The notes beneath the pieces are model-generated. The model was not told where the DNA came from, made no database searches, and saw nothing but the letters and a program-made list of their open reading frames with translations. A program made the position numbers and the translations under genes. This document shows positions 36,608-57,616 of a stretch of 64,000 nt of DNA, one piece after another (within the stretch, counting starts at the first letter, position 1; every line of letters starts with the position of its first letter). This stretch comes from an uncultured bacterium (GTDB lineage: Bacteria > Omnitrophota > Omnitrophia > Omnitrophales > Abzuiibacteriaceae): the NCBI GenBank assembly GCA_964387845.1, contig CAYLXA010000002.1, forward strand, positions 64,001-128,000, read 5' to 3'.

Positions 36608-38560
36608 ATGAATACACTTTTAATTCTTGATGATTTGGCGGAGCTTCTATCATCTAAAAATAAAACCATACAAAAGCTGCTTTCGGCGTACTTGCAGCAT
36701 TTGGCGCGTTCAGCCGATGGCGCGGCTGAGGAGTTGTTGCGTGACGGTGATACGGTTTTTGCGGCAGGTCCGCAGGAGGTTTTAAGCCGTGTCACAGGAC
36801 CTTGCGAAAAGCTGGATTACGGAATCTGGTTCGATACAATCCCGTTTGCGCGCGGCGGGGAGATTGCAGGAAAGATAGTGGAGCAGATTCGGGTTTCCGA
36901 AGAGCTTAAGTCGATCTGCCCGTTTCTGTATCGGAACACGATTTCAATTCCAAAAATCGCCGCGATGCGGCTGATCATTACATTCTGCTACCACGCGGTC
37001 AATAATTATCTTTTACTTGAAAGCATCATTCGAAAAAAGCAAATTCAGAAAATCGTGGTTTTGGGGTCTGGTGCTGAAATTGAAATTTTAGGAAAAGAAT
37101 TGTCAAAGAAGCATCGCTTACAGTTTCAAGTCATGCGCCCTCATGATGTAATTTTAAAATTAAAAGTTAGGTTTGCTGATTATCTTTTTTATCGAGACAG
37201 AAAACTTCATGCCCTTCAATCGTTTCAAAACTGCGACAGCTTGCCTAAGCAAGAAATCAAGAAGAGGAACCATAAAAAATTGATCGCCATGCTTCCGGCG
37301 CATTCCCTTCATTTTAAAATCATGGACTCGCTCATGGGCGCGCTTCGCCAATCGCGCAATTATGAGCCATGCGTGCTGCTTCAAGATGCTTTTGAGCCGT
37401 ATCAAGGGGCATTGAAAAATTCGGGAATAGCATTCCGATTTCTTCATGATTTTTCGAGCAGGGAACTTATGGGAAAATTTCAAAATTATTTTAAAAATCT
37501 CAAATCTGCTTGGAAGAAATTAAGAAATTCGGATACATTTAAATCTGCGTTTGACTGCGATGGGCTCAATTGGTTCGATATTCTGAGAGTCGAAATGGAG
37601 TGGTTTTTTAAATTCAGCTATGCTGAAACGCTGGTCTTGCAGGAGCGCTTACGAAAAGCGATGGCAGATGTGCCGATAGATTCCGTTTTTACTTTTAGCG
37701 ATTCACGGTTTTTTGAAGCGGGAGGTGCGGCAATTGCACGGGAGATGAAAAAGCCCTCGTTTTTATATTCTCCTAATTTTTTATACGATACAGACGGTAT
37801 TAACGACTACGATACGGCGGAATTTGTTTTGACCGTGGGCAATCAAATGAAAGATTATATTGCGGCGCGCGGCAAGGTGAATCCGAGTCAAATTTTCACC
37901 GTTGGCGATATCCGTTTTGACGGAAGCGAAAAATGGCGAAGCAGCGATCAGGCCGAGAAAACTCGTGTACAGCTTCAAATTCCATCGGACAAAAAGGTAT
38001 TTATTCTAACCTCGTTTTACACTTGCTTTGGCTATAATGCATACGACAAGAAACGCTTCTTTGAAATGATTCGAGATGCCGCCAAAGCCAATCCGGACGT
38101 TGCGATTGTGATCAAGGCACATCCGAACGAGAGCGAAGAAGTTCTGCGGCAATTTGTTAAAAGTTTGGGCATGAGTGATTTTCCGTTAACAAAAACAATG
38201 CCGCTTTATTCGCTGTTTGGAATATCCAGCGGGCTTATTTCGTTGACGTCTCTTGCGGCAGTCGAAGCCATGGCATTGGATTTACCGGTTATCATTGCGA
38301 CGCTGCCGGATCGAAATTACGATTACTATATCCCATTTCGCCAATCCGATTCGGCAGCGTATGCTGCAAGCGCCGAAGAGCTCTCCTTGATTTTTAGAAA
38401 ATTAATTGATGAATCGAACTACAAAAAAAATTTGTTGGAACGGCATCGACAATTTGTTTCGCGTTATGTGGACCGAGGCGGGCAGAGCGCCGGCCAACGG
38501 GTTATTCAGGTTCTAGATAAAATTGTGAATTCCGAACGTGAGAATTTGGGGCAGCTCTAA
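36608..38560 (+). CDS. two-domain protein: N-terminal domain of unknown function plus a C-terminal GT-B-like 'HP-motif' transferase domain (KpsS/TagF/sialyltransferase-like). Candidate nonulosonic acid transferase.
   Basis: The C-terminal ~250 aa contain '…KKVFILTSFYTCFG…' and 'VAIVIKAHPNESEE', followed by 'LISLTSLAAVEAMALDLPVI'. A K-x-HP motif of this kind is shared by PF05159/TagF/GT38/GT52 enzymes. The gene ends 5 nt before the CMP-NulO synthetase gene. Confidence 0.45.
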   Translation: MNTLLILDDLAELLSSKNKTIQKLLSAYLQHLARSADGAAEELLRDGDTVFAAGPQEVLSRVTGPCEKLDYGIWFDTIPFARGGEIAGKIVEQIRVSEELKSICPFLYRNTISIPKIAAMRLIITFCYHAVNNYLLLESIIRKKQIQKIVVLGSGAEIEILGKELSKKHRLQFQVMRPHDVILKLKVRFADYLFYRDRKLHALQSFQNCDSLPKQEIKKRNHKKLIAMLPAHSLHFKIMDSLMGALRQSRNYEPCVLLQDAFEPYQGALKNSGIAFRFLHDFSSRELMGKFQNYFKNLKSAWKKLRNSDTFKSAFDCDGLNWFDILRVEMEWFFKFSYAETLVLQERLRKAMADVPIDSVFTFSDSRFFEAGGAAIAREMKKPSFLYSPNFLYDTDGINDYDTAEFVLTVGNQMKDYIAARGKVNPSQIFTVGDIRFDGSEKWRSSDQAEKTRVQLQIPSDKKVFILTSFYTCFGYNAYDKKRFFEMIRDAAKANPDVAIVIKAHPNESEEVLRQFVKSLGMSDFPLTKTMPLYSLFGISSGLISLTSLAAVEAMALDLPVIIATLPDRNYDYYIPFRQSDSAAYAASAEELSLIFRKLIDESNYKKNLLERHRQFVSRYVDRGGQSAGQRVIQVLDKIVNSERENLGQL

Positions 38561-38564
38561 TCAC

Positions 38565-39281
38565 ATGGCAAAAAAAATATTACTAACCATTGCTGCCCGC
38601 GGCGGTTCAAAAGGTGTTAAGAATAAAAACATTCGAATGCTTCACGGAAAGCCGTTGATTGCCCACACAATTCATGCTGCGTTGAAATGGGGAAAGGCAG
38701 ATCGTGTAGTGGTCAGCACTGACTCGGCTGCAATTGCACGAGCAGCGCGGAAATATGGCGCTGAAGTCCCGTTCTTGCGGCCCGCTGCGTTTGCTCGGGA
38801 TTCTTCCCCAAAATGGCATGCATTAAAGCATGTATTGGAACAATCTGAGAAATTCTTCAACGAACGCTATGATTTGGTGATTGACCTGGATGTAACGGCG
38901 CCAATTCGCAGCGGGCAGGATATTGATGTGTGTCTTCAAAAGTTTTTACGCTTCAAACCCAAAACGCTTTTCAGCGTAACGCTCGCCCATAAGAATCCGT
39001 ATTTTAATATGGTGGAAGAAACAAAAAATGGTCGCGTGCGGGTCTCAAAGAAGTTGAGGACAAGCATTGTCCGGCGTCAGGATGCGCCCAAGGTTTACGC
39101 AATCAATGGTTCGATTTATGTTTATTCGCGTAATTACCTGCTCAAGTCTAAAAATCCTATTGCGACGAGCGATGATTCAATTATTCACGTGATGGATGAA
39201 CTAAGCGGTATCGACATAGACCGTGAAATCGATTTCAAATTCGTTGAATTCTTAATTCGCGAAGGCATGGTAAAGTTTTGA
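38565..39281 (+). CDS. acylneuraminate cytidylyltransferase family (CMP-nonulosonic acid synthetase, LegF/NeuA/PseF-like)
   Basis: 'ILLTIAARGGSKGVKNKNIRMLHGKPLIAHTI' is the hallmark N-terminus of CMP-NeuAc/CMP-Leg synthetases. 239 aa. Confidence 0.85.
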   Translation: MAKKILLTIAARGGSKGVKNKNIRMLHGKPLIAHTIHAALKWGKADRVVVSTDSAAIARAARKYGAEVPFLRPAAFARDSSPKWHALKHVLEQSEKFFNERYDLVIDLDVTAPIRSGQDIDVCLQKFLRFKPKTLFSVTLAHKNPYFNMVEETKNGRVRVSKKLRTSIVRRQDAPKVYAINGSIYVYSRNYLLKSKNPIATSDDSIIHVMDELSGIDIDREIDFKFVEFLIREGMVKF

Positions 39282-40150
39282 AAACCACTCGCATTATTCC
39301 TCGCCTCGATATTAAAGGCCCTAACCTGGTGAAGGGAATTCACCTTGAGGGCTTACGTGTTCTTGGTAAGCCTGAAAAATTTGCTCGCTATTACTACGAA
39401 ACAGGTGCTGACGAACTTCTCTACATGGATGTTGTTGCTAGTCTGTATGGGCGAAATAGTTTGCTCGATATTATTTCCAAAACTTCAAAAGAGATTTTTA
39501 TTCCGTTAACGGTTGGCGGCGGCCTCAGATCTTTGGTTGATATGCAGGCTGTTCTTCATGCGGGTGCTGATAAGGTCGCGATCAATACTGCCGCAACGCA
39601 AAACCCGGAGATTATTCGCGAAGCCTCTAAACGCTTCGGATCTTCAACCATTGTCGTCTCGATTGAGGCCATTAAGCAACCCGACGGCACTTATCATGCT
39701 TTCATCGACAACGGACGTCAGGAAACCGGCTTGGATGTGTTCGATTGGGTTCAAAAAGTTGTCGAGTTGGGTGCTGGTGAAATTTTGCTGACCTCTGTCA
39801 ATCAAGAGGGAACGGGAAAGGGTTACGATCTTGACCTCATCAAAAAAGTTTCCGAAATGATTCCGATTCCCGTGATTGCTTGCGGCGGAGCGAAAAATAA
39901 ATCCGATGTGGCGAAAGTAATTATGGAAGGATGTGCGGATGCTGTGAGCGCTGCATCGATCTTTCATTATCATTATATTCGTGAAAACAGGTCAACCTCA
40001 GATTTTGAAACCGAAGGCAACGTTGAATTCTTAAAAAGCGGCAAGGGATTCAGCCAGTTTGACACAGTGACAGTTCGCGATGTTAAAAAGCATTTAACAG
40101 ATTTAGGGATCGAATGTCGTTATGAAAAAGGTTTGGTGGAACATGGCTAA
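39278..40150 (+). CDS. imidazole glycerol phosphate synthase cyclase subunit HisF paralogue (WbuZ-like, glycan amidotransfer)
   Basis: 'IIPRLDIKG…VKG' and a (beta/alpha)8 HisF signature 'ILLTSVNQEGTGKGYD'. Located in a glycan locus, not in a his operon. Confidence 0.8.
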   Translation: MKTTRIIPRLDIKGPNLVKGIHLEGLRVLGKPEKFARYYYETGADELLYMDVVASLYGRNSLLDIISKTSKEIFIPLTVGGGLRSLVDMQAVLHAGADKVAINTAATQNPEIIREASKRFGSSTIVVSIEAIKQPDGTYHAFIDNGRQETGLDVFDWVQKVVELGAGEILLTSVNQEGTGKGYDLDLIKKVSEMIPIPVIACGGAKNKSDVAKVIMEGCADAVSAASIFHYHYIRENRSTSDFETEGNVEFLKSGKGFSQFDTVTVRDVKKHLTDLGIECRYEKGLVEHG

Positions 40151-40817
40151 ATCCAAACCGCGAGTCGCTATTGTCAATTACGGCATGGGAAATCTGTTCA
40201 GCGTGCAGCAAACCTGTGCTCATGTTGGCCTTGAAGCCGTGGTTACAAACCAAAAAAGGGATCTCCAAACGGCTGACGGAATCATTTTGCCTGGCGTTGG
40301 GGCATTTGGAGATGCTATGGACAACCTAAACCGTTTAGATATTACAGAAACCCTCCAGAAGGCCATTTTATCTGAAAAAAAGCCTTTTCTAGGGGTCTGC
40401 CTGGGCCTGCAATTACTTATGGAGGAAAGTGAGGAATTTGGGTATCATAGAGGCCTTGGTGTAGTCAAGGGGAAGGTAATTCGCTTTGGCGATCAGATAA
40501 AGGGCAGGGATGGCAGGGCAGCGAAAGTCCCTCAAGTCGGTTGGAATCAGATATATCCTACGCCAAGCGGAAGTGAATGGAGCCAGTCGCTTTTGTCCGG
40601 AGTTTCAGAGGGCGATTTCATGTATTTTGTGCATTCATACCACATTGAGCCAGAAGATAGAGGCGTTCGTTTGTCAATGACGCGCTATGGTAATTTTGAA
40701 TTTTGCTCCAGTGTACAGAAGGGAAATATCTTTGGCTGTCAGTTTCATCCGGAACGAAGCGGTGCCAAGGGCGTTACGGTTTACCAAAATTTTTTGAAAT
40801 TATTTTCTAAATCTTAG
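40143..40817 (+). CDS. glutamine amidotransferase HisH paralogue (WbuY-like)
   Basis: Class I GATase triad context 'GVCLGLQLL' (Cys) and 'FHPE' (His/Glu). ATG 40143 overlaps the hisF-like stop (ATGGCTAA). Confidence 0.8.
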   Translation: MAKSKPRVAIVNYGMGNLFSVQQTCAHVGLEAVVTNQKRDLQTADGIILPGVGAFGDAMDNLNRLDITETLQKAILSEKKPFLGVCLGLQLLMEESEEFGYHRGLGVVKGKVIRFGDQIKGRDGRAAKVPQVGWNQIYPTPSGSEWSQSLLSGVSEGDFMYFVHSYHIEPEDRGVRLSMTRYGNFEFCSSVQKGNIFGCQFHPERSGAKGVTVYQNFLKLFSKS

Positions 40818-40825
40818 GAGCAATA

Positions 40826-41659
40826 ATGAGTGTACTTTCAGCAAGTGTTTCATTAATGCGGCGATTTACTTTATCGCTTCCCAAACCCATTTCAAACCAT
40901 GCCGCAAAAGCATACGAAAAGATTGGATCAACATTCATTGGGCTTTCAGATCAAATGAATTTTGTTCAAAGCGCATCGGGAATACGAAATGATACAGAAT
41001 CTTTTCGACGTGATCTGTTGTGCAAGTTTAACCGTATTCAAAATAATATGATCTGCGCACATCAACCAAATGAGCTTCTCATATTGTCAGACACGATTTT
41101 AAAACTCTCAATTCCCGGCGATATTGTAGAGCTGGGTTGTTATAAAGGAGGTTCATCTGCCAAATTAAGCTGGATAGCGGCGACTACGGGTCGAAAATTG
41201 TATGTTTGCGATTCATTCGAGGGGTTGCCACAGCCTAACGAGCACGATCAATTCCACAAATCGCTCATTGGGCGAGATAAGCATTACAATCAGGGAGATT
41301 ATTGTGGTCAGCTAGACGAAGTAAAGGATAATATTAACCGTTATGGCAGCATGGCGTCTTGCGAATTTATAAAAGGTTTTTTCTCAAATTCGTTAAAAGA
41401 TCTAAAAGTAAAACCAGCACTCATTTTTATGGATGTGGACCTTATTGATTCAGCGCGTGATTGCCTCATTCATTTATGGAATAAGCTGGAAAAGGGCGGA
41501 AAATATTTTACTCACGAAGCCACGATGTTAAATTTTATAACTGAACTTACGAATCATGATTGGTGGCAAAGAAATTTTGGGCATCCAGCTCCTATTCTAA
41601 TGGGAGTCGGATTTGGCATGTCAGATCAAGCAAAAAATCTTGCTTTTTTCCAAAAATAA
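40826..41659 (+). CDS. TylF/MycF-family SAM-dependent O-methyltransferase
   Basis: 'VELGCYKGGSSAKLS', 'VCDSFEGLPQP' and 'FMDVDLIDSARDCLIHLWNKLEKGGKY' match macrocin-O-methyltransferase family blocks. Confidence 0.6.
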   Translation: MSVLSASVSLMRRFTLSLPKPISNHAAKAYEKIGSTFIGLSDQMNFVQSASGIRNDTESFRRDLLCKFNRIQNNMICAHQPNELLILSDTILKLSIPGDIVELGCYKGGSSAKLSWIAATTGRKLYVCDSFEGLPQPNEHDQFHKSLIGRDKHYNQGDYCGQLDEVKDNINRYGSMASCEFIKGFFSNSLKDLKVKPALIFMDVDLIDSARDCLIHLWNKLEKGGKYFTHEATMLNFITELTNHDWWQRNFGHPAPILMGVGFGMSDQAKNLAFFQK

Positions 41660-41661
41660 TT

Positions 41662-42495
41662 ATGACCAAAACAATGCCATCGATAATGATAAATTTAAAT
41701 AAAAAAGCATTGCTCGATATCGCTGAGCAAAAACACCATGAATATGTGACTGCAAGTCCGTTCCCGCATATAGTGATTGATGATTTTCTTCCTCCAGATA
41801 TTTTAGATGTTGTTTTAGAAGAATTTCCAAACCCAGGCGATCCTGTTTGGCTTCAGCATGTTCACGCGAATAGTAAAAAAATGGCATGTAACGATGTTGA
41901 TAAAATGGGACAAATCACTCAACAACTTTTTTATCAATTTAATTCTGCGCTTATCATTGAGTTTCTAGAGAAGCTAACCGGCATTTCGGGACTAATTCCA
42001 GACACAAATTTTACAGGTGGAGGACTTCATTGTATTGGAGAAGGGGGATTTCTAAAAATCCATGCGGATTTTAATTTTCATGAAAAATTAAAATTAGACC
42101 GACGTCTCAATCTACTTGTTTACCTCAACAAAAATTGGAAAGAAGATTACGGCGGCCATTTGGAATTATGGGACAAGAAAATGACTCATAGCGTTAAAAA
42201 AATTCTCCCCATTTTTAATCGTTGTGTTGTATTTGATACCACCGATTTTTCGTTTCATGGCCATCCCGATCCTTTGCAATGCCCTAATAACGTCTATCGA
42301 AAGTCATTAGCTCTCTATTATTATTCCAATGGACGTCCCCTGGAAGAGAAGTCAGATTCGCACTCTACTCTCTATCAGGCGCGGCCACATGAAATTCGGA
42401 TGAAGCACGTTGTTAAAAAGCTATTACCTCCGATTATTTTTGATTTTCTTGTGGATGCAAAAACAAATTTAAAGAAAAAATCTAAAAAAGCATGA
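41662..42495 (+). CDS. 2-oxoglutarate/Fe(II)-dependent oxygenase, prolyl-4-hydroxylase-like
   Basis: HxD…H facial triad 'LKIHADFN … SFHGHP', with the P4H-like 'RLNLLVYLNKNWKEDYGGHLELW' between the two. The probable start is the ATG at 41662; the ORF track starts upstream at 41560. Confidence 0.6.
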   Translation: MTKTMPSIMINLNKKALLDIAEQKHHEYVTASPFPHIVIDDFLPPDILDVVLEEFPNPGDPVWLQHVHANSKKMACNDVDKMGQITQQLFYQFNSALIIEFLEKLTGISGLIPDTNFTGGGLHCIGEGGFLKIHADFNFHEKLKLDRRLNLLVYLNKNWKEDYGGHLELWDKKMTHSVKKILPIFNRCVVFDTTDFSFHGHPDPLQCPNNVYRKSLALYYYSNGRPLEEKSDSHSTLYQARPHEIRMKHVVKKLLPPIIFDFLVDAKTNLKKKSKKA

Positions 42496-42499
42496 AGCT

Positions 42500-43723
42500 A
42501 TGACGCAATCTGAAACTCAAAATAAATTTAAAACCAAGTACGGTTTGCCGTCAGAAGTAATTTTCTGCAAGCGTTGCGTCATGTCAAACCAGCGGCCCGC
42601 TTCAAGTAAAGAATTCAAGCATACCAAATCTCAAAAACACACAACGCTTAATATTCCAAACGATGGTATCTGCGATGCGTGCCGTTACGCGGATAAAAAA
42701 GAAGAAATCAATTGGAAAAGCCGAGAAGCCGAACTTTTGAAACTGCTCGACCGCCACCGCAAAACGGACGGAACTTACGATTGCATTGTTCCTGGAAGCG
42801 GCGGAAAAGACAGTGTTTATGCAGCGCACTTGCTCAAATACAAATACGGTATGCATCCTTTGACGGTCACTTGGCCGCCAATTCTTTACACCGATATTGG
42901 TTACGCGAATTTTAGAAATTGGCTCTACAAAGGCGGTTTCGATAACATTTCGTTTAATTACAACGCCAAAGTTCATGCACTATTAACAAGACTCGCCATC
43001 GAAAACCTTCTTCATCCTTTTCAACCTTTTATTCTTGGACAAAAAAACCTCGCGCCCAAGCTCGCTTTAAAATATGAAGTGCCTTTGATTTTCTACGGTG
43101 AAAGTGAAGCAGAATATGGAAATCCGCTTGCAGAGACCGCAACCTCGCTCCGCGATAAATCTTATTTCACGATGGAAAATCTTTCCGATATTCATTTGGG
43201 CGGCGTAAGCGTGAAAGAACTTCAGGAAAAATACAAACTCACAATCAACGACATTATGACTTATTTGCCGCCGACGGCATCCGAGGTCGCCAAAATGAAT
43301 ATGGAAGTTCATTACCTTGGTTATTATTTAAAATGGACACCGCAGGAAGCCTATTATTACTCGGTTGAAAATGTGGGTTTTCAGGCAAATCCATTCCGCA
43401 CCGAAGGCACTTACAGCAAATACAACAGTTTGGATGATAAAATAGACGGCTTCCACTATTACACCACTTTCATTAAATTTGGCTTAGGTCGCGCAAGTTA
43501 CGATGCATCACAAGAAATTCGCAACAAACATTTGACGCGGGAAGAAGGTATAGCGCTTGTCCGCAAGTTTGACGGGGAGTTTCCTCAAAAATATTTTCAG
43601 GAAATCATGGACTATATCGGCATGAAGCCCGATCATTTTCTGGATCTTTGCGACCAATTCCGGTCTCCGCATTTATGGAAAAAAGAAAATGGGAAGTGGA
43701 TCTTGCGCTATCCGGTCAATTAA
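42500..43723 (+). CDS. N-acetyl sugar amidotransferase (WbuX/PseA family, PP-loop ATP pyrophosphatase)
   Basis: PP-loop 'IVPGSGGKDSVYAAHLL'. About 400 aa, as in WbuX/PseA. Adjacent HisH/HisF paralogues complete the known acetimidoyl-forming trio. Confidence 0.8.
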   Translation: MTQSETQNKFKTKYGLPSEVIFCKRCVMSNQRPASSKEFKHTKSQKHTTLNIPNDGICDACRYADKKEEINWKSREAELLKLLDRHRKTDGTYDCIVPGSGGKDSVYAAHLLKYKYGMHPLTVTWPPILYTDIGYANFRNWLYKGGFDNISFNYNAKVHALLTRLAIENLLHPFQPFILGQKNLAPKLALKYEVPLIFYGESEAEYGNPLAETATSLRDKSYFTMENLSDIHLGGVSVKELQEKYKLTINDIMTYLPPTASEVAKMNMEVHYLGYYLKWTPQEAYYYSVENVGFQANPFRTEGTYSKYNSLDDKIDGFHYYTTFIKFGLGRASYDASQEIRNKHLTREEGIALVRKFDGEFPQKYFQEIMDYIGMKPDHFLDLCDQFRSPHLWKKENGKWILRYPVN

Positions 43724-43747: not shown

Positions 43748-45547
43748 ATGACACAGCCGCAAGCAATCAAATACAGCTCTCTGCTTTATTTTATATTGCA
43801 GTATAAAAAAAATTTTTTTGTTTTATTAACTGCAACTCTCGCCGTATCATTTTTTGAAATTTGTCAATTGGCCGCAATGCTGCCAATTTTGAACCGTTTA
43901 ATTCCTGCCACGTCACCCAACGTGCCTGTGCCCGGGTTAAAATTTTTTGAAGGTGCCATTGCAATGGCTCCCTTCAAAGAAACACTAATCTCGGCCGTGG
44001 CTGTGTTTGCTGTTGTTGTGATTGTGCGTTTTTTTATTGTATTCACCGCCGAGCTTTTAAATCATCGAACAACCCAGGAAATCATCTATCAAACAAAAAG
44101 AAAAATTCTCAAAAAAACCTTGGCATCCAAGTACCAATTTTTCCTCGACAGTAAGCACGGAGACCTTTTTTTTATTTGCATTACGGCGCCCGAGAATGCC
44201 GGCGCTTATTTGTCTATTTTCGTTTCAGCTGTGATTTACTTTTTTACCACCATTGCAATTCTAGGGTTTTTGCTATCGATCAATTTTGTTGTCACTTGTT
44301 CCATTATTTTACTCGGGCTTTTGTATTATTTAGGTACGCGGAAGATTTCCGTGCGCGTTTCGTATGTAGGTGGCCAAAAAAGGATCGGTTTGATCAAAGA
44401 ACAACATGGTCTGATTCAAGAATCTCTGCAAGGCATTAAATACATCATTACTTATGGAAAACAGGAGCCTTTGCAGCGAGTGTTTGACCGATCAAGCCGT
44501 GCATTTTGCGATCAAGTCCATCGAGACACTTTCTGGCAGACTCTATTGCAAAAAGTACCAGAGCCAGCACTTTTACTTCTCGCTTCTTCAGGCATCATTC
44601 TGTTGGTAACGTCTATCGGTCAACAAGCCGTCGGAAGTTATCTCAACATCATCGGCGTTTACTTTTTTGCAATCCAAAGAATTATTCCCGCCTTAAATAA
44701 ATTCAGCACCTCTGCTTTTCAAGTGCTGGCCGGCATGCCCAACTTAGAGGCGTGTCAGAATTTTTTGGAAGCTCCTATTGAAAAACAGGCTGACGGCAGC
44801 ATCGCCGTTGATCAGCTTAAGGATGCGATCAGATTTGAGAATGTCAGTTTGACATATCCAAACGGTAAGCATGTCTTGAAAAGTGTGAGTATGATTTTTA
44901 GGAAGGGGAAAACAACCGCAATTGTCGGGGAATCCGGATCCGGTAAGACTTCGGTGGTTAATTTAATTTTGGGCCTGCACCATGCGAGTAACGGCTCTAT
45001 CCTCATTGACGAACATTCGCTGAGCGATGTCAGAATGAGTACTTTGCTGAGCAAAATCGGCTATGTTGGGCAGGAGACATTTCTACTCCACGCCAGCGTT
45101 AAAGATAACATTGCTTTTTACGATCAGTACTCGGATGAAAAAATCATGGAAGCTGCCAAAATGGCGGACGCGGCTGAATTTATCGAAGAACTGCCAGATC
45201 GATATGACACCATTGTGGGGTCCGGAGGTATGAAGCTTTCGGGCGGCCAGCGTCAACGGCTTGCGATTGCGCGCGCATTGTTGCGGCGGCCGGAGATTTT
45301 AGTGTTAGATGAGGCAACCAGTAACTTGGATAGCATTTCAGAAGGCGTTGTGCAGCAAACCATCAATCACATTGCTCAGTATTATACGGTTATTGTCGTT
45401 GCGCACAAATTATCAACGGTGAAAAGTGCCGATCAGATCTACGTACTGCACGATGGTCAAATAGCAGAATCCGGTACGCATGAAGCATTGATGGAAAGAC
45501 GCGGAAAATATTACCAGCTGCATTTTATTTCCAGCGGTTCTGATTAA
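43748..45547 (+). CDS. ABC exporter, fused TMD-NBD (MsbA/PglK/WzkA-like lipid-linked glycan flippase candidate)
   Basis: Six N-terminal TM helices. Walker A 'GESGSGKTS', signature 'LSGGQRQRLAIARAL', Walker B 'LVLDEATSNLD' and H-loop 'VVAHKLST'. Confidence 0.85.
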   Translation: MTQPQAIKYSSLLYFILQYKKNFFVLLTATLAVSFFEICQLAAMLPILNRLIPATSPNVPVPGLKFFEGAIAMAPFKETLISAVAVFAVVVIVRFFIVFTAELLNHRTTQEIIYQTKRKILKKTLASKYQFFLDSKHGDLFFICITAPENAGAYLSIFVSAVIYFFTTIAILGFLLSINFVVTCSIILLGLLYYLGTRKISVRVSYVGGQKRIGLIKEQHGLIQESLQGIKYIITYGKQEPLQRVFDRSSRAFCDQVHRDTFWQTLLQKVPEPALLLLASSGIILLVTSIGQQAVGSYLNIIGVYFFAIQRIIPALNKFSTSAFQVLAGMPNLEACQNFLEAPIEKQADGSIAVDQLKDAIRFENVSLTYPNGKHVLKSVSMIFRKGKTTAIVGESGSGKTSVVNLILGLHHASNGSILIDEHSLSDVRMSTLLSKIGYVGQETFLLHASVKDNIAFYDQYSDEKIMEAAKMADAAEFIEELPDRYDTIVGSGGMKLSGGQRQRLAIARALLRRPEILVLDEATSNLDSISEGVVQQTINHIAQYYTVIVVAHKLSTVKSADQIYVLHDGQIAESGTHEALMERRGKYYQLHFISSGSD

Positions 45548-47368: not shown

Positions 47369-48379
47369 ATGAATCTTAAAGGCAAAAGAGTTCTGGTTAC
47401 CGGAGCCGATGGTTTTATCGGTTCTCATTTGACCGAAGCGCTGGTGAGGCGTGGATGTAACGTACGCGCGTTCGTATTTTACAATTCGTTCAATTCATGG
47501 GGCTGGCTGGATGAGTCGCCAAAGGATATCAGAAAGTCTTTGGACGTGGTTGCTGGAGATGTCCGCGATCCGCACGGTGTCCGAGAAGCCGTAAAGGGAT
47601 GTGACGTTGTCATGCACCTGGCAGCGCTTATTTCAATTCCGTTTTCGTATCATTCGCCGGATGCTTTTGTTGATACAAACATAAAGGGGACTCTCAACGT
47701 GTTGCAGGCATCTCGAGATTCAAAAGTAAGCAAAATTATTCATACCTCCACGAGCGAAGTTTACGGAACCGCGCAGTTTGTGCCCATTACGGAAGAGCAC
47801 CCATTGCAGGGCCAATCACCCTATTCGGCCTCAAAAATTGGGGCTGATCAGATGGCTACGGCTTTTCACTCAGCGTTCCAAACACCGGTTTGTATTTTTC
47901 GGCCGTTCAATACATATGGTCCAAGGCAGTCAGCGCGCGCGGTTATTCCTTCTATTATTATTCAAATCGCAACGGGAAAGAGTGAGATCAAGCTTGGATC
48001 TGTCCATCCAACTCGAGATTTTACCTATGTATCCGACACGGTCGAAGGTTTTATCAAAGCCGCGGAATCAGAAAAGTCGGTTGGCGAGGTGATTAACGGG
48101 GGTAGTAATTTTGAGATCTCAATTTCGGATACCGTAAAATTGATTAGCAAAATCTTAAACCGAAAAATTGCGGTCATAAGCGATAATCAAAGAATTCGCC
48201 CGAAAGCAAGCGAGGTGGAGCGATTGTGGGCTGACAATAAGAAGGCAAAAAAACTACTTAACTGGAAGCCTGCGCATAGCGGTTTAGAAGGTTTTGAAAA
48301 GGGGCTAAGAAAAACCGTGGACTGGATCTCGCAAGCGGATATTTTAAAGCGATACAAAGAAGAGATTTATAACATTTAA
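47369..48379 (+). CDS. NAD-dependent nucleotide-sugar 4,6-dehydratase/epimerase (LegB-like candidate)
   Basis: 'VLVTGADGFIGSHLTEAL' Rossmann fold, plus TSE and YxxxK ('YSASKIGADQ'). It is the first gene of the Leg-type sub-cluster. Confidence 0.7.
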   Translation: MNLKGKRVLVTGADGFIGSHLTEALVRRGCNVRAFVFYNSFNSWGWLDESPKDIRKSLDVVAGDVRDPHGVREAVKGCDVVMHLAALISIPFSYHSPDAFVDTNIKGTLNVLQASRDSKVSKIIHTSTSEVYGTAQFVPITEEHPLQGQSPYSASKIGADQMATAFHSAFQTPVCIFRPFNTYGPRQSARAVIPSIIIQIATGKSEIKLGSVHPTRDFTYVSDTVEGFIKAAESEKSVGEVINGGSNFEISISDTVKLISKILNRKIAVISDNQRIRPKASEVERLWADNKKAKKLLNWKPAHSGLEGFEKGLRKTVDWISQADILKRYKEEIYNI

Positions 48380-48381
48380 CA

Positions 48382-49557
48382 ATGAAGCGAATAAAATCCA
48401 ACATAGACGCCACAAGTGTTCTGAAGGCTGTTAGGAAGTGCTTGCCCGGGGACAGTCGCCCCATCCAACTTCACGAGCCCTGGTTTGCCGGCAACGAGCA
48501 GAAGTATGTCAGTGCGTGCATTAAGAGCGGGATTGTTTCATCGATCGGGCCTTATGTTGAACAGTTTGAGAAACAATTGATCCGATTGACAGGCTCAAAA
48601 TTTGCAATTGCCACGATCAACGGAACAGCTGGGCTTCATACGGCACTCCGAATGGCCGGAGTAGAGGCAAATGATGAGGTTTTAGTGCCGTCATTGTCAT
48701 TCGTTGCAACATCAAATGCGATCGCGTATTGCGGCGCTATTCCTCATTTTATTGACAGTGAGATGCGGGCGCTTGGCGTTGATCCGCACAAGCTTCAGGA
48801 TTATTTGGTAAAAATATCCAAACGGCGAAATAGCGGCTTCATCAATAAAACAACAGGCCGGAGAATAAGAGCGGCGGTTGTGGTGCATACATTCGGCCAC
48901 CCGGCGGATCTTGACGCTATCCAGGCAGTTTGCAAAAAATTTAAACTTCCACTAATTGAAGATGCTGCAGAATCGATCGGATCCTATTACAAAGGGAAGC
49001 ACACCGGTACAATCGGAGACTTTGGTGTTTTAAGCTTTAACGGCAACAAAACAATCACGTCAGGCGGCGGAGGCGCGATTTTAGTACAGAATCAAAAACT
49101 GGCAAAACATCTCCGGCACATTACAACCACCGCTAAAATACCTCATGCTTGGCGTTATTATCATGATGAAATCGGATATAATTATCGGCTTCCCAATCTA
49201 AACGCTGCGCTTGGCTGTGCGCAATTGGAGTCGCTGCCGATGTTTATCAAGCGCAAACGGGCCTTAGCCAAACGTTACGAGAAGGCTTTCTCCCATATTA
49301 ATGGAGTTAGTTTTATTAAGGAACCTCCTTTTGCAAAAAGCAACTACTGGCTAAATGCTGTCAGGCTGGAAGGTGTTGGATTGCGGGAAAGAGATCGGTT
49401 TTTAACGCTTATGCACACGCACAACATTAAAACAAGGCCGGTGTGGACACTGACGCATCGTCTTCCTATGTATCGAAATTGCCCGCGAATGGATATGTCC
49501 GTATCAGAGAAAATTGAAAAAGAAACTATTAACCTGCCCAGCAGCCCAGCGTTATGA
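48382..49557 (+). CDS. DegT/DnrJ/EryC1/StrS-family PLP-dependent sugar aminotransferase (LegC/PglE-like)
   Basis: 'LHEPWFAGNEQKYVSACIKSG' N-terminus. PLP-lysine region 'SFNGNKTITSGGGGAIL'. Confidence 0.85.
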   Translation: MKRIKSNIDATSVLKAVRKCLPGDSRPIQLHEPWFAGNEQKYVSACIKSGIVSSIGPYVEQFEKQLIRLTGSKFAIATINGTAGLHTALRMAGVEANDEVLVPSLSFVATSNAIAYCGAIPHFIDSEMRALGVDPHKLQDYLVKISKRRNSGFINKTTGRRIRAAVVVHTFGHPADLDAIQAVCKKFKLPLIEDAAESIGSYYKGKHTGTIGDFGVLSFNGNKTITSGGGGAILVQNQKLAKHLRHITTTAKIPHAWRYYHDEIGYNYRLPNLNAALGCAQLESLPMFIKRKRALAKRYEKAFSHINGVSFIKEPPFAKSNYWLNAVRLEGVGLRERDRFLTLMHTHNIKTRPVWTLTHRLPMYRNCPRMDMSVSEKIEKETINLPSSPAL

Positions 49558-51737
49558 AGCGAAGAATTTGTGTAGTTACTAGTTCGCGCGCCGATTTTGG
49601 TCATCTGCAGTGGGTCATGACCTATCTGAAAAAAGATCCGAGAGTTCGCTTGCAAGTTGTGGTGACCGGCTCACACTTATCTCGCGCGCATGGAACCACC
49701 TTGCGCGAAATTCAGGACGCGGGAATTTCTGAATCTGCTCGGATTCCAATCATTGCAAAAGGGGATTCTGTTGTTGCGATAACGCAAGCGGCTGGAATGG
49801 CATTGAGCAGATTTGCAAAGGTCTTTGACAGGCTCAAACCCGAATTGCTGCTGGTTGTGGGAGATCGTTATGAAATTCATTCGGCCGTAACGGCGGCGCT
49901 TCTCGCTAAAATTCCGGTTGCACATATTGCCGGTGGCGACATTACGGAAGGGGCATTCGATGACGCGTTGCGGCACAGTATCACCAAAATGGCTCATTTG
50001 CACTTTGTGACAAATGCCGTGTCGGCGAAACGAATTCGGCACATGGGAGAAAACCCTTCGCATATTTTTAACGTTGGAAATCCTGCGCTTGACCATGTAA
50101 CGAAATCAAAATTATTCACTAAAAACGAAATTGAGGAGAAGCTTGCTTTCAAAATGCGCTCACGCAATATCTTGATTACGTTTCATCCGGTTACGCTGGA
50201 CACCGAACCATCTGACCGGCAATTTAAACAGTTGCTGAGCTCGCTGAATCGGTTGGGAGACGAATATGGCCTTATTTTTACTAGGCCCAACGCGGATCCG
50301 GCAGGACAAAAGATATCTAAATTGATCGATCATTTTGTCAAAACGCATTCAAACGCTATTGTAAAAGCCTCGCTAGGTCATTTGTTATACTTAAGCATCA
50401 TGAATGAAGTTGATTTGGTTGTCGGAAATTCATCAAGCGGGATTTATGAGGCGCCAACATTTAAAATTCCCACAGTTAACATCGGAAACCGGCAAAAAGG
50501 CCGCTTGCGAGCGGCTTCTGTGATTGATTGCGCGCCGAGCAGGGCGGCAATTAGCCGAGCAATTCGGTCAGCTCTAGCAAAGGATTGCTCGCAGGTTGAA
50601 AATCCTTACGGACGGGGAAATAGTTCCGAGCAAATTTATAAGATTATTCGCTCTGTCCAGAACCCAAAAACACTAATTCAAAAGAAATTTTATGATGCCG
50701 GCGTGCCCACTAAAACTGGGCCGGTTTATGTGATCGCCGAAGCGGGGGTGAATCATGGCGGCTCGCTGAAACTTGCAAAAAAACTGATCGACGCAGCTTC
50801 GCAAGCCGGCGCTAATGCGGTCAAGTTTCAAACTTTTGATTCGGATATGCTGGTAACGCGACAAGCTAAAAAAGCAAAATACCAGCAAGACACAACCGGC
50901 AAAAATGGGTCTCAATATGAAATGCTCAAAAAATTAGAACTCAGCCAGAAAGATCATTTTGCGCTGAAAGCTCACTGCAAAAAAAGAAAAATTGATTTTT
51001 TATCGACCCCTTTTGATTTAAAAAGCCTTGATTTCTTAATCAACAATCTGCAGGTCCGGAAAATTAAAATATCTTCAGGCGATATTACCAACGGGCCGCT
51101 ACTGTTGAAAGCTGCGGAATCAAAACTTCCGATTATTTTATCAACCGGAATGTCAACGCTTGACGAAATTGAAGCTGCCGTAAGATTGATCGAGAAAGGA
51201 TATCGATCCAGCGCCTCTCTTTTAAAATCAAACTTAAAACTGCTTCATTGTACAAGCGAATATCCGGCCTCATTTTCTGATATGAATTTGTTATCGATCG
51301 ATTTTTTAAGAAATTATTTTCAATTGGATGCCGGGCTGTCAGATCATTCGAGCGGGATAGCAGCTGCAATTGCAGCCGTAGGGCGCGGCGCATCCATTAT
51401 TGAAAAACACATTACTTTGAATAAAAGCATGGCAGGCCCCGATCACCGCGCATCGCTTGATCCGAATGAGTTTCGAGAACTGGTTCGATCAATTCGCCAA
51501 GTCGAAGAAGCTATGGGATCCTACGTAAAAAGGCCGGCAGCGTCAGAATTAAAAAACCGAAGCGCAGCCAGAAAGAGCATCGTCGCTTCCAAGCCGATTA
51601 AACGCGGAGAAAGGCTGACCCGTCACAATCTGGCGCTGAAGCGTCCCGGTGTCGGGATCAGCCCCATGAATCTTTCGGAAGTCATAGGACGACTATCAAC
51701 CAAAAATTATAAAAAAGACGATATCATTGTTATCTAA
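49554..51737 (+). CDS. fused hydrolysing UDP/GDP-HexNAc 2-epimerase (NeuC/LegG-like, N-terminal half) and nonulosonic acid synthase (NeuB/LegI-like, C-terminal half)
   Basis: Residues 1-~375 read 'VVTSSRADFGHL…VVGDRYEIHSA…HIAGGD…RHSITKMAHLHF', which align with E. coli NeuC. Residues ~385-727 read 'VYVIAEAGVNHGGSLKLAKKLIDAASQAGANAVKFQTF', the NeuB TIM barrel, and end in a C-terminal SAF domain. Confidence 0.85.
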   Translation: MKRRICVVTSSRADFGHLQWVMTYLKKDPRVRLQVVVTGSHLSRAHGTTLREIQDAGISESARIPIIAKGDSVVAITQAAGMALSRFAKVFDRLKPELLLVVGDRYEIHSAVTAALLAKIPVAHIAGGDITEGAFDDALRHSITKMAHLHFVTNAVSAKRIRHMGENPSHIFNVGNPALDHVTKSKLFTKNEIEEKLAFKMRSRNILITFHPVTLDTEPSDRQFKQLLSSLNRLGDEYGLIFTRPNADPAGQKISKLIDHFVKTHSNAIVKASLGHLLYLSIMNEVDLVVGNSSSGIYEAPTFKIPTVNIGNRQKGRLRAASVIDCAPSRAAISRAIRSALAKDCSQVENPYGRGNSSEQIYKIIRSVQNPKTLIQKKFYDAGVPTKTGPVYVIAEAGVNHGGSLKLAKKLIDAASQAGANAVKFQTFDSDMLVTRQAKKAKYQQDTTGKNGSQYEMLKKLELSQKDHFALKAHCKKRKIDFLSTPFDLKSLDFLINNLQVRKIKISSGDITNGPLLLKAAESKLPIILSTGMSTLDEIEAAVRLIEKGYRSSASLLKSNLKLLHCTSEYPASFSDMNLLSIDFLRNYFQLDAGLSDHSSGIAAAIAAVGRGASIIEKHITLNKSMAGPDHRASLDPNEFRELVRSIRQVEEAMGSYVKRPAASELKNRSAARKSIVASKPIKRGERLTRHNLALKRPGVGISPMNLSEVIGRLSTKNYKKDDIIVI

Positions 51738-51746
51738 AGACGCGTC

Positions 51747-52340
51747 ATGAGAGAAGAGATTGATAAACCCATTATTGTGATTGGGGCTGGAGGGCATGCC
51801 AAAGTCCTGATCGACGCACTGCGGTTAATGGGATGCCAGGTGTTGGGCGCAACCGAAAAAAAACCGGAAATAATTGATCAGGCAAAACTTCCGGTGAAGC
51901 TTTTGGGAAACGACGATGAAATATTAAAGCATTCACCCGACAGCATACTGCTCGTTAACGGTGTAGGCCAAGTTGGGGTAGGGCCAAGTCGCTCTCAGAT
52001 ATTTGATAGATATAAATCAAAAGGCTATCGGTTTGCAATCATCCAACATCCCCGAGCCGTTGTCGCGGCTGATGTTGAATTGCATGAGGGCGCACAAATT
52101 ATGGCTGGTGCAATCATTCAAACTGCTTCCAAAATTGGCTGTAACACCATTGTGAATACAGGCGCATCGATTGACCATGATTGCCAAATTGAAAGCCATG
52201 TCCATATTGCGCCTGGAGCCATTTTGTGCGGGATGGTTGAAGTGGGAGAGGGATCTCATATTGGCGTTGGTGCTATTCTCATTAACAATACAAAAGTGCC
52301 GCGAAACAGTTTTATTAAGTCCGGTACTCTGGTGAAGTAA
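51747..52340 (+). CDS. hexapeptide-repeat sugar N-acetyltransferase (NeuD/PglD/LegH family)
   Basis: 'IIVIGAGGHAKVLIDAL' Rossmann-like N-domain followed by a left-handed beta-helix. Confidence 0.8.
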   Translation: MREEIDKPIIVIGAGGHAKVLIDALRLMGCQVLGATEKKPEIIDQAKLPVKLLGNDDEILKHSPDSILLVNGVGQVGVGPSRSQIFDRYKSKGYRFAIIQHPRAVVAADVELHEGAQIMAGAIIQTASKIGCNTIVNTGASIDHDCQIESHVHIAPGAILCGMVEVGEGSHIGVGAILINNTKVPRNSFIKSGTLVK

Positions 52341-52350
52341 GGAGTTTGTT

Positions 52351-53397
52351 ATGGAAATTTGGAAAAAAACGCTCGTATCAAAGTTAACGCCGATCAAAGA
52401 AGTGATTAAAGTAATCGATGCGGGATCTTTGCAAATTGCTTTGGTCGTTGATGAAAATTATAAGCTTTTAGGAACCGTTACCGACGGTGATGTTCGCCGC
52501 GGCATTTTAAAAAACATATCCATGAATGATCCCGTGCACAAAATTATGCAGTCGAAACCAGTCATTGCAAAACTGGGCGAGGAGCGAGAAAAAGTTTTGG
52601 TACGCATGAAAGAAAAGCAGATCAATCAAATTCCATATCTTGATCAAGCGGGGCGTGTCAAAGGACTTGAAGTTATCCATGATTTGCTTAACGGATCCGC
52701 AAAAGATAATCCTGTATTATTGATGGTGGGCGGCCTGGGAAGCCGGCTGCAACCAATCACAAACGATCTTCCGAAGCCGCTCATTAAAGTCGGTGGCAAG
52801 CCGATTTTGGAACGCATTTTAGAGGATTTGATTGAATACGGCTTCCGGAAGTTTTACTTTTCCGTATTTTATAAATCCGAAATGATTCAAGAATATTTCG
52901 GTGATGGCAGCCGCTGGGATGTGGAAATTCGGTATATTCGCGAGCAAAAGAGAATGGGCACTGCCGGCGCCTTGAGCCTTCTTCCTGAAAAGCCTTCGGC
53001 ACCAATTTTAATTATGAACGGAGATTTGGTTACAAAAGTTAATTTTCAGCATCTTTTTGATTTTCATCAGCAGCAATCCGGCGATTTGACCGTGTGCGTC
53101 CGTGAGTATGATTTTCAAGTGCCTTACGGCGTTATTAAAATGAACGGTCATCTTATTTCAGGCATCGACGAAAAACCGGTGCATAAGTTTTTTGTAAACG
53201 CCGGAATTTATTTGATGGAGCCTGCGCTTTTGCGAAACATATCCAAAAACCGTTTTTTAGACATGACCCAGCTGATTGAAAAATTGAAGTCCAAAAAGAA
53301 AATTCTCGCATTTCCGATCCGTGAATATTGGCTCGATATCGGCCGGCACGACGACTTAAAGCGTGCAACCGAAGAAATCGAGTCGTTGTTTAAATAA
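52351..53397 (+). CDS. CBS-pair plus sugar-phosphate nucleotidyltransferase (PtmE-like, GDP-HexNAc forming candidate)
   Basis: Two N-terminal CBS motifs. Then 'LMVGGLGSRLQPITNDLPKPLIKVGGKPILERIL', the G-x-G-T/S-R-L NTase signature. Confidence 0.8.
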   Translation: MEIWKKTLVSKLTPIKEVIKVIDAGSLQIALVVDENYKLLGTVTDGDVRRGILKNISMNDPVHKIMQSKPVIAKLGEEREKVLVRMKEKQINQIPYLDQAGRVKGLEVIHDLLNGSAKDNPVLLMVGGLGSRLQPITNDLPKPLIKVGGKPILERILEDLIEYGFRKFYFSVFYKSEMIQEYFGDGSRWDVEIRYIREQKRMGTAGALSLLPEKPSAPILIMNGDLVTKVNFQHLFDFHQQQSGDLTVCVREYDFQVPYGVIKMNGHLISGIDEKPVHKFFVNAGIYLMEPALLRNISKNRFLDMTQLIEKLKSKKKILAFPIREYWLDIGRHDDLKRATEEIESLFK

Positions 53398-56412: not shown

Positions 56413-57616
56413 AGCAGTTCTTATTTTGGATCAAATAGTACATATTGCGGTAGCGCTTGCTATCATGTCTTATATTTTTTCACGTGGGCTCTTGCTTGTC
56501 GGTATTTATACAGCGCTGATTGCTTGGCTGCTTGGCCGAATCTTAAAGCGAAAGACCATGCTTCCGCACACAGAGTGGAATATTTATCTGGGAATTATTT
56601 TGACTGCACTCATAGCTTCGGTGATCGTAAACGGAAATTGGTACGAAGGAGCGCGGGGCCTGCACAAGTGGCTAAGAGCTCTATTGCTATTTCTATTTGC
56701 CGCTGATTACCTGAGAGATAAGGAAAGCAAAAAAAACGTTTTACTGGCCCTTGGCACCGCGTTTTTGGTTGCTGTACTAGACGGGATTGCGCAGTATTTT
56801 ACTGGCAGAGACTGGATCCGCGGATTTGAGCTTGGGTATGCCGATTTTGTACCGCGCGTGACTTCATCGTTTGGTTATTTTGGCATGTTCGCTTCGTTCC
56901 TGGTCATGGCAGGGCCTATTGTATTTTGGTTTTTTTGGAAAAATTCTTCAAAACTAATCCGTTACGGACTTCTAGGAATTTCAATGTCTTTGGGTCTTCT
57001 AAATCTTTATCTGACTCGGGCGCGCGGTGCGTGGATTTCGCTGGCAGCAATGTTCGTTGCTTATTTGGTAATTACAAAGCGATGGGTCATGATTACGGTG
57101 CTGGCAGTAGCAACCGCTGCATTTTTGTTTTTACTGCCTCGCGACATTGTGCTGCACAGTCCAAAGGAAGTGGGAATCGACAAAACAATTCACCACCGCA
57201 TAATCTTATCCAACGAAGCCCTGACGATTTGGAGAGCGAACCCGCTTTTTGGATGCGGGCTTAATACGTATGTGCAGAATGTGGAAAAATATAATTTACC
57301 AAATTCACATGAGGTTAGAAATTATTACGCTCACAATGGCTACCTTCAATATGGCGCAGAGACCGGTATTGTTGGTTTTTTAGCGCTCGTATTCTTTTTA
57401 TTTCGGTATGGGATGGTGGCTATCTATAAATGCATTACTGAGCGCGCCGCTAGATTTTCTTTGAATCACGCATTATTAGTTTCAAACGGCAGTTTCCTCT
57501 TTTACATGTTTTTTGATACAATTTTTCACAATTTACAGCCATTTTTACTTTTTTGGTTTTTGCTTGGTTGGCATGCGTCTGTATTGCGGTATTCCCATGA
57601 AAACATTACGTCATAG
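56396..57616 (+). CDS. Wzy_C-family membrane protein (O-antigen ligase WaaL / O-oligosaccharyltransferase PglL / polymerase family)
   Basis: About 10 TM segments with a large periplasmic loop carrying 'YAHNGYLQYGAETGIVG', which is the conserved H-N-x-x-L / 'gaetG' region of WaaL/PglL. Confidence 0.7.
   Translation: MVKQTKAVLILDQIVHIAVALAIMSYIFSRGLLLVGIYTALIAWLLGRILKRKTMLPHTEWNIYLGIILTALIASVIVNGNWYEGARGLHKWLRALLLFLFAADYLRDKESKKNVLLALGTAFLVAVLDGIAQYFTGRDWIRGFELGYADFVPRVTSSFGYFGMFASFLVMAGPIVFWFFWKNSSKLIRYGLLGISMSLGLLNLYLTRARGAWISLAAMFVAYLVITKRWVMITVLAVATAAFLFLLPRDIVLHSPKEVGIDKTIHHRIILSNEALTIWRANPLFGCGLNTYVQNVEKYNLPNSHEVRNYYAHNGYLQYGAETGIVGFLALVFFLFRYGMVAIYKCITERAARFSLNHALLVSNGSFLFYMFFDTIFHNLQPFLLFWFLLGWHASVLRYSHENITS

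Follow-up and report, generated by a model that had tools for sequence, protein, structure and literature searches.

What does an Fe(II)/2-oxoglutarate (2OG) oxygenase do in the midst of genes for a bacterial surface glycan, and does it act on a sugar, on a protein or on something without direct relation to the glycan? The question is raised by the window, i.e. the whole stretch of 64,000 nucleotides analysed here, in which such a gene lies between those of a TylF-like O-methyltransferase and a WbuX-type amidotransferase. Databases already name the window protein '2OG-Fe(II) oxygenase', and its superfamily and fold are well known. The searchable literature gave no functional description of the subfamily and no substrate or product for any member. 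Neither did it give any account of the association of the subfamily with polysaccharide loci, of its glycosyltransferase fusions or of its pairing with a methyltransferase.

An intact oxygenase inside a glycan cluster

The glycan cluster extends from 15.2 kb to at least 62 kb of the window, lies almost entirely on one strand and is preceded by housekeeping genes (an ArgS fragment, MiaA, HflX, AccD and an LptD-like protein). The named relatives of the sigma-54 gene (Table 1) all belong to Candidatus Omnitrophota and share at most 58% identity with it, so that the window probably stems from a genome of this phylum. The cluster encodes two UDP-sugar dehydrogenases, five SDR epimerase/dehydratases, an RmlD-like reductase, at least 10 glycosyltransferases (GT), four methyltransferases, two SGNH proteins, a GT-C enzyme of PMT_2 type, a PglK/MsbA-like ABC protein, a Wzy_C ligase-like protein and a WbaP-like priming transferase. 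It also carries a complete nonulosonic acid (NulO) pathway with its cytidylyltransferase, and the HisF-like, HisH-like and WbuX genes that constitute an acetamidino-forming set. The NulO genes encode a dehydratase, an aminotransferase, a NeuC-NeuB fusion, a PglD-like acetyltransferase and a CBS-nucleotidyltransferase; judged from their Pfam families, they are probably of the legionaminic acid type. The HisH-like gene and wbuX are separated by the methyltransferase-oxygenase pair.

Table 1. Positions of the oxygenase gene and of other features of the window
Feature	Position	Strand	Remarks
Sigma-54 gene	5565-7013		
CMP-nonulosonate cytidylyltransferase (PseF/NeuA-like)	38538-39281	+	PF02348, E 3.3e-19; TIGR03584, E 4.5e-38
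WbuZ/HisF-like gene	39278-40150	+	TIGR03572, E 6.5e-82
HisH-like glutaminase gene	40122-40817	+	TIGR01855, E 5.3e-62
TylF-family SAM-dependent O-methyltransferase	40826-41659	+	277 aa; PF05711, E 1.6e-22
Fe(II)/2-oxoglutarate oxygenase gene	41662-42495	+	ATG start, TGA stop; 277 aa
WbuX-type N-acetyl sugar amidotransferase	42500-43723	+	TIGR03573, E 1e-103, above cutoff
Putative legionaminic-acid-type NulO pathway	47369-53397	+	Pfam families precomputed for the identical contig

The oxygenase gene starts 2 nt past the end of the methyltransferase gene and ends 4 nt ahead of wbuX. A public gene call on the identical contig places the start at an in-frame ATG at 41686, giving a protein of 269 aa, and both starts are compatible with the alignment of homologues. 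The protein contains the motifs IHADFN (residues 133-138), LVYLNKNWKEDYGGHLELW (residues 152-170) and FHGHP (residues 198-202). The preliminary description had listed these three motifs and both intergenic distances, and comparison with the open reading frame and the neighbouring coordinates confirmed every detail. Its proposal that the gene is co-expressed with the glycan pathway fits the tight spacing within a long cluster on the same strand.

The profile search that it had recommended matched the protein to PF13640 (2OG-FeII_Oxy_3; P4H-like) with 70.4 bits and an E-value of 2.6e-19, the gathering cutoff being 27, and to PF13661 with 43.2 bits. Given these scores and more than 7,400 homologues, the assignment is no chance match. 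Furthermore, the protein has the jelly-roll fold of the 2OG-Fe(II) oxygenase superfamily. An alignment of 192 sequences combined the query with 120 homologues from databases and 71 copies from genomes. In it, the iron triad H134/D136/H199 is kept in 191, 192 and 192 sequences, respectively, and the pair R213/S215 (RxS motif) in all 192. Further invariant residues, specific to the family, are K73, D114, GGG119-121, H123, W159, W170, N186, R187, H201, YYY219-221, R225 and H234. Profile alignment to human OGFOD1 puts H199 on the distal iron histidine, the triad on the triad region of OGFOD1 and R213/S215 on its 2OG-binding segment 'SRLSIS', which suggests that this pair binds 2OG. The catalytic site is thus intact and essentially invariant across the family. 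Hence, with the triad and the 2OG-binding arginine kept and PF13640 above its cutoff, the placement in the P4H/EGL-9/Tpa1-like branch made in the preliminary description is borne out.

Two ways in which that placement could fail had been named, membership of a family lacking the triad and decay of the gene, and the conservation of the triad in 191-192 of the 192 sequences speaks against both. A degraded or inactive remnant would indeed be hard to reconcile with a full-length frame, with homologues aligning from end to end, with all catalytic residues being kept and with a structure model that is confident apart from the C-terminal tail; the sequence refutes this explanation, to which we give practically no weight.

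With NCBIfam, only sub-threshold matches were obtained, to YhhC (34 bits, cutoff 150) and to the 'FlmC family 2OG oxygenase' (21 bits, cutoff 240). The lead towards FlmC of Caulobacter was dropped, this protein being described as cytidylyltransferase-like (PMC7591256). Neither a signal peptide nor a membrane span was found in the oxygenase. Its C-terminal tail (from about residue 240-245) is hydrophobic and then poly-lysine, and is modelled as helical with low confidence. With a hydrophobic moment of 0.2-0.4, it has no clear amphipathicity, and we make no claim of membrane binding.

Structural relatives and known systems

In structure comparison, the highest scores were those of OGFOD1 (22.4, over 226 residues with 20% identity) and Tpa1 (22.0), followed by Trichoplax PHD (19.3), Streptomyces cacaoi PolD (19.0), Dictyostelium PhyA (18.8), Photorhabdus PasI and Pseudomonas PPHD (18.6 each) and PHD2 (18.4). 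The top-scoring solved relatives are protein prolyl hydroxylases, with no sugar enzymes among them, which counts against the role in glycan decoration that we favour below. The best matches (OGFOD1, Tpa1, PHD2-type enzymes, PhyA and PPHD) would rather suit a protein prolyl or lysyl hydroxylase, creating on a target protein a hydroxyl that is then glycosylated and methylated, as a bacterial counterpart of the hydroxyproline glycosylation of Skp1 or of the collagen lysyl hydroxylase-glycosyltransferase LH3.

The resemblance to individual systems is partial. OGFOD1 and Tpa1, which hydroxylate a proline of ribosomal protein uS12, have a catalytic domain like that of the window oxygenase in sequence and in structure. 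However, identity is only about 20%, and both possess a second, non-catalytic beta-helix domain at the C-terminus whereas the window protein is a single domain of 277 aa without it. Moreover, they belong to translation and the oxygenase family to polysaccharide assembly, so that the genomic context argues against hydroxylation of uS12 by the window enzyme. Collagen LH3 and mimivirus L230 represent a different branch of the superfamily, act on a protein (lysine) substrate and come from eukaryotic or giant-virus lineages.

PolD and PasI, Fe/2OG enzymes from pathways of polyoxin-type nucleoside antibiotics, are homologous to the oxygenase over its full length, with about 19-21% identity. Their genes are located in antibiotic clusters, whereas the window gene and 71 other oxygenase loci have polysaccharide or other non-antibiotic contexts. 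These enzymes use free nucleoside phosphates and catalyse C-C cleavage, not glycan decoration. Fe/2OG oxygenases that hydroxylate LPS components are established in KdoO, the 3-hydroxylase of LPS-core Kdo, and LpxO, the lipid A hydroxylase. The target of KdoO is an ulosonic acid, hydroxylated at its 3-deoxy carbon; legionaminic acid shares this position. No homology between KdoO and the window oxygenase was detected, and the analogy was rejected as a homology. Rv1501 of M. tuberculosis is at most a candidate member of the oxygenase family, the paper found on it giving no annotation, and no argument here relies on it.

Distribution and genomic context of the family

In a word-indexed search with the oxygenase, 7,473 matches were obtained; even the closest, found among cyanobacteria, actinobacteria, candidate-phyla bacteria and others, share no more than 55-63% identity with it. 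When 1.84 billion cluster representatives were searched exhaustively with a profile, 6,076 matched at E<=0.001, of which 1,860 at E<=1e-30; the latter, as clusters at 50% identity, are taken as the size of the family. Its members are spread over cyanobacteria, actinobacteria, proteobacteria, candidate phyla and Streptomyces phages. Compared in pairs across phyla, the 71 oxygenases share 53% identity in the median and never less than 40%, as against 30% for the GT2, 30% for the methyltransferases and 40% for the GT4 encoded next to them. Since the oxygenase is constant inside variable loci, the family probably handles one constant type of substrate.

The comparative genomics that the preliminary description had called for was based on 80 genome loci, in which genes were called crudely, neighbours clustered and the cluster representatives annotated. 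Nine loci in which no target gene was called were left out, and 71 were usable besides the window. Genes of glycan families (GT2, GT4, Wzx, Wzy-like, methyltransferase, sulfotransferase, acyltransferase and epimerase) are found within four genes of the oxygenase in 52 of these 71 loci, from many phyla; this is a lower bound, gene calls being crude and singleton neighbours unannotated. Counted in the same way, GT2 is found in 28 of the 71 loci, GT4 in 22 (23 with the window), the Wzx flippase in 16, a polytopic membrane protein (weakly Wzy_C-like in L087) in 16, Wzy_C in 11, a methyltransferase in 10, an epimerase in nine, Acyl_transf_3 in eight, a hexapeptide acyltransferase in seven and a sulfotransferase in five. 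When the 127 immediate neighbours were scanned against Pfam, a similar set emerged: GT2 (14), class-I methyltransferase (9), Wzx (8), sulfotransferase (8), GT4 (7), Acyl_transf_3 (6) and Wzy_C (6). The remaining 19 loci, under the same crude calls and unannotated singletons, have no labelled glycan gene nearby, which counts against a general role in glycan synthesis.

For instance, cyanobacteria share a common module consisting of Wzx, the oxygenase, a Wzy-like protein and GT2. Its attribution to the hormogonium polysaccharide (hps) locus was rejected, matches to Hps proteins being weak and sub-threshold only. A copy on a megaplasmid of Sinorhizobium meliloti (41% identity) lies within a polysaccharide cluster and adjoins a methyltransferase, and in Streptomyces phage Zuko the oxygenase, a GT, a methyltransferase and a second GT form a compact cassette.

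Homologues of WbuX, of the HisH/HisF-like proteins, of the cytidylyltransferase and of the NeuC-NeuB fusion were found near the oxygenase in none of the 71 other loci; therefore, the family is not tied to nonulosonic acids. It is a regular accessory gene of polysaccharide loci, and the amidotransferase, HisF/HisH-like, cytidylyltransferase and NulO genes are context in the window rather than conserved partners. These data do not support the preliminary description on two points: it had regarded such oxygenases as non-standard in O-antigen or NulO clusters, whereas the family is a common accessory of polysaccharide clusters in many phyla, and it had implied a link to the NulO pathway, whereas the conserved partner is the methyltransferase.

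The same counts bear on the possibility of a glycan oxygenase with another chemistry, such as formation of a ketone from a carbinol or an amine, O- or N-demethylation opposing the methyltransferase, desaturation, or a C-C cleavage of a high-carbon sugar acid like that of PolD and PasI. The position of the window gene among genes for a nine-carbon sugar acid would be consistent with the last reaction, but high-carbon sugar genes are absent from all 71 other loci. Moreover, the recurrent pairing with an O-methyltransferase and a possible methyltransferase-like fusion, both described below, are more simply understood as making a hydroxyl and then capping it. We consider these other reactions quite unlikely.

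Methyltransferase partner and fusions

Among solved structures, the TylF-like protein is related to MycF (E about 1e-11) and NovP (E about 1e-10), both sugar O-methyltransferases acting on hydroxyls. Its association with the oxygenase recurs in other loci. An oxygenase homologue with 63% identity (P0107, locus L086) is directly followed by a TylF protein of 277 aa that is 47% identical to that of the window, and in a candidate-phylum genome (L059) a divergently oriented TylF gene (45.6% identity) adjoins the oxygenase. As an independent test, 80 metagenome loci were fetched by the methyltransferase alone. The oxygenase is immediately adjacent in 12 of them, including all six best methyltransferase matches; six of these 12 are among the 35 loci with both flanks readable and six among the 32 with one flank readable. 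The TylF-like methyltransferase therefore adjoins the oxygenase in at least 15 independent loci (the window, L059, L086 and the 12 metagenome loci). The two genes stand in either order and in either orientation, often with an overlap of a few bases. Other genes of the paired loci are mixed, some being related to glycans (Wzx, GT2, GT4, nucleotidyltransferase) and others unrelated. Recurrent adjacency in mixed neighbourhoods indicates that the pair is a portable two-gene unit. Hence, the methyltransferase, and not the amidotransferase, is the meaningful neighbour of the oxygenase in the window.

Fusions were surveyed in the 150 best cluster representatives and in the fetched loci. Three GT2-oxygenase fusions (P0139, of 954 aa, P0141 and P0269), one oxygenase-GT2 fusion (P0271) and one GT4-oxygenase fusion (L079, 587 aa) were found, and another oxygenase protein (P0252) has a weak match to a ricin-type lectin. 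Furthermore, L070, P0125 and P0132 have in common a C-terminal domain of about 250 aa, 50-58% identical among them, with the motifs EFGVAGGNG and DVDYYSST. This domain weakly resembles TylF/Methyltransf_24 (Pfam Methyltransf_24 at 18 bits, below cutoff; BLAST E 2e-4; hhalign E 0.002 with a probability of 13% and colinear motifs) and has no match in the PDB. Its possible kinship with methyltransferases is treated as a lead only.

Pairs located outside any recognisable glycan locus (L086 and L090-L094), with neighbours including an ABC exporter, a signal peptidase and RecG, count against a role in glycan decoration. They would be expected if the protein were a regulatory or housekeeping oxygenase, i.e. 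a sensor of O2 or 2OG or a hydroxylase of a translation factor, that merely travels with envelope genes. Such a function would also agree with the very high conservation of the family and with the activity of bacterial PPHD, a relative in fold that hydroxylates EF-Tu (4iw3 entry). It is at odds with the existence of the five glycosyltransferase fusions, with the glycan context of most loci and with the patchy, accessory distribution of the gene, whose closest relatives, only 55-63% identical and from unrelated phyla, are unlike those of a housekeeping gene. We regard it as very improbable.

Substrate and proposed function

Several features of the family would suit a protein as the substrate of hydroxylation. 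A target protein that is itself conserved could account for the high conservation of the family across phyla, and the glycosyltransferase fusions are reminiscent of LH3. The cassette of phage Zuko points in the same direction, since actinophages are thought to glycosylate virion proteins, as proposed for Corndog (PMC4351075). In addition, many cyanobacterial copies of the oxygenase adjoin a Wzy_C-like membrane protein. The Wzy_C family also includes protein O-oligosaccharyltransferases. However, no conserved candidate target protein adjoins the gene in the 71 loci; its neighbours are rather those of lipid-linked polysaccharide assembly (Wzx, Wzy, priming transferases), and the methyltransferase that accompanies it is of the kind that O-methylates sugars. 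Moreover, the oxygenase has no sequence for export or membrane insertion, whereas glycans that depend on Wzx are attached outside the cytoplasm, and to our knowledge glycans linked to hydroxyproline or hydroxylysine are not established in bacteria. Hydroxylation of a protein, the alternative named in the preliminary description, seems unlikely to us but is a serious competitor of the sugar hypothesis.

The genomic contexts, the glycosyltransferase fusions and the recurrent pairing with a sugar-type O-methyltransferase argue for a role in glycan synthesis. This part of the earlier proposal of a candidate glycan hydroxylase was retained, but not its tie to the NulO pathway. We regard it as moderately likely that an active cytoplasmic oxygenase and the TylF-type methyltransferase decorate a surface glycan by hydroxylation followed by O-methylation, the sugar nature of the substrate, the type of reaction and the order of the two steps being inferred. 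With O2 and 2OG as co-substrates, the oxygenase would oxidise a C-H position in a sugar or in the N-acyl group of a sugar, within a glycan intermediate that may be nucleotide-activated or undecaprenyl-linked, on the cytoplasmic side. The new hydroxyl would then be O-methylated by the enzyme encoded just upstream. In other lineages, a fused or adjacent enzyme may attach a sugar or a sulfate group to it instead.

A comparable two-gene logic is known from cephamycin C biosynthesis, in which the 2OG hydroxylase CmcJ and the methyltransferase CmcI jointly install a methoxy group (C-H to C-OCH3). The likeness meant here is one of logic, and the substrate in that case is a beta-lactam, not a sugar. 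Two further considerations count against decoration of a glycan by hydroxylation and O-methylation. Sugars have few unoxidised carbons, so that the chemistry may not be a simple hydroxylation, and an O2-dependent enzyme sits awkwardly in Omnitrophota, which are mostly anaerobic.

It is doubtful that the substrate in the window is the 5-acetamidino legionaminic acid made by the products of the flanking genes, because nothing but gene position supports it; any other residue of the large heteroglycan could be modified as well.

It is also possible, with our expectation leaning against it, that the family represents either a widespread, so far undescribed methoxy-installing unit, in which the oxygenase and the TylF-like enzyme act on an unactivated carbon of a surface sugar, or the missing hydroxylase of a bacterial or phage protein glycosylation linked to hydroxy amino acids. 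In the window, the methoxy group could be placed on a deoxy carbon (C3 or C9) or on the N-acyl methyl of 5-acetamidino-legionaminic acid. If either reading were true, O2-dependent C-H oxidation would be a general step of prokaryotic glycan diversification.

Known enzymatic decorations of bacterial surface glycans are mostly additions of acyl, methyl, phosphoryl, pyruvyl or amino-acid groups, and we know of O2-dependent C-H oxidation only for the few LPS enzymes mentioned above, KdoO and LpxO. The oxygenase family is likely to contribute to many polysaccharides a chemical step that has gone unrecognised. With its substrate identified, structures could be predicted better from O-antigen and EPS loci; the finding might also bring new sugar epitopes to light and would yield a new biocatalyst for the C-H functionalisation of sugars.

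The glycan supercluster and its nonulosonic-acid genes

A single glycan supercluster of about 47 kb spans positions 15203-62165 of the window, nearly all of its genes lying on the + strand. Besides at least 10 glycosyltransferases and four methyltransferases, it encodes two SGNH proteins, one PMT_2 GT-C enzyme, a putative flippase, a ligase-like protein and a WbaP-like priming transferase (see table). Since it carries both an ABC flippase and a ligase, its product is suggested to be an oligosaccharide that is flipped once rather than a Wzy-polymerised O-antigen. The cluster also encodes a fused hydrolase-synthase of the nonulosonic-acid pathway and, directly upstream (5') of the cytidylyltransferase gene, a 650-aa protein that is a candidate nonulosonic-acid transferase. 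Outside the cluster, this bacterial genome encodes a deoxyhypusine synthase homologue.

Features of the window
Feature	Position	Strand	Matches and remarks
Deoxyhypusine synthase homologue	3411-4532		PF01916, E 1.2e-87
Sigma-54 gene	5565-7013	-	Named relatives all from Candidatus Omnitrophota
650-aa protein	36608-38560		Weak hits at the C-terminus only, to Capsule_synth and to TIGR04396 (family name 'surface carbohydrate biosynthesis protein')
TylF-family O-methyltransferase	40826-41659	+	
P4H-like Fe(II)/2-oxoglutarate oxygenase, 277 aa	41662-42495	+	PF13640
PglK/MsbA-like ABC protein	43748-45547		Within supercluster
NeuC/LegG-like UDP-GlcNAc 2-epimerase-type hydrolase fused to NeuB/LegI-like synthase, 727 aa	49554-51737		Epimerase_2, NeuB and SAF
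Wzy_C ligase-like protein	56396-57616		Within supercluster
WbaP-like priming transferase	57513-59024		Within supercluster

The methyltransferase-oxygenase pair and its homologues

The acetamidino-forming gene set (39278-43723) is interrupted: the HisF-like and HisH-like genes are followed by the methyltransferase-oxygenase pair and then by wbuX. The pair looks like a two-gene cassette inserted within this set. Some homologues of the oxygenase are extended at their C-terminus. A recurrent fusion (L070:7929-9593 and the cluster representatives P0125 and P0132) adds an unannotated domain, roughly 250 aa long, to the C-terminal end of the oxygenase; this domain displays the motifs EFGVAGGNG and DVDYYSST and resembles TylF/Methyltransf_24 only weakly. 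The extension of another representative, P0186, is unlike this domain, unannotated and about 430 aa long.

In cyanobacteria, the gene directly downstream (3') of the oxygenase encodes a membrane protein that is polytopic and roughly 470 aa long (L007:8909-10537 and 15 further loci). Most copies have no Pfam match and one (L087:8861-10279) has a weak match to Wzy_C; the protein probably represents a polymerase or ligase of divergent sequence. In a Bdellovibrionales MAG, the gene adjacent to the oxygenase (L031:7077-7892) has a sub-threshold match to MptE-like/DUF115, a domain that occurs in the Maf flagellin nonulosonic-acid transferases.

Furthermore, Streptomyces phage Zuko (MN204493.1, 75988-78480) carries a compact cassette encoding an oxygenase homologue, a glycosyltransferase, a methyltransferase and a second glycosyltransferase, and phage KimJongPhill carries a cassette of the same kind. 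The oxygenase homologues of these two phages show 37-40% identity, and their cassettes may have a role in modifying a virion or host-envelope glycan. Oxygenase homologues are likewise encoded on two viral contigs from marine single cells.

An oxygenase family in Omnitrophota

The named relatives of the sigma-54 protein encoded in the window are all Candidatus Omnitrophota proteins, with identities of at most 58%, and the window therefore probably belongs to this phylum. A member of the oxygenase family is also present in a second Omnitrophota genome (L057). Omnitrophota are for the most part anaerobes and the presence of an O2-dependent oxygenase within a glycan locus of this phylum is therefore notable.
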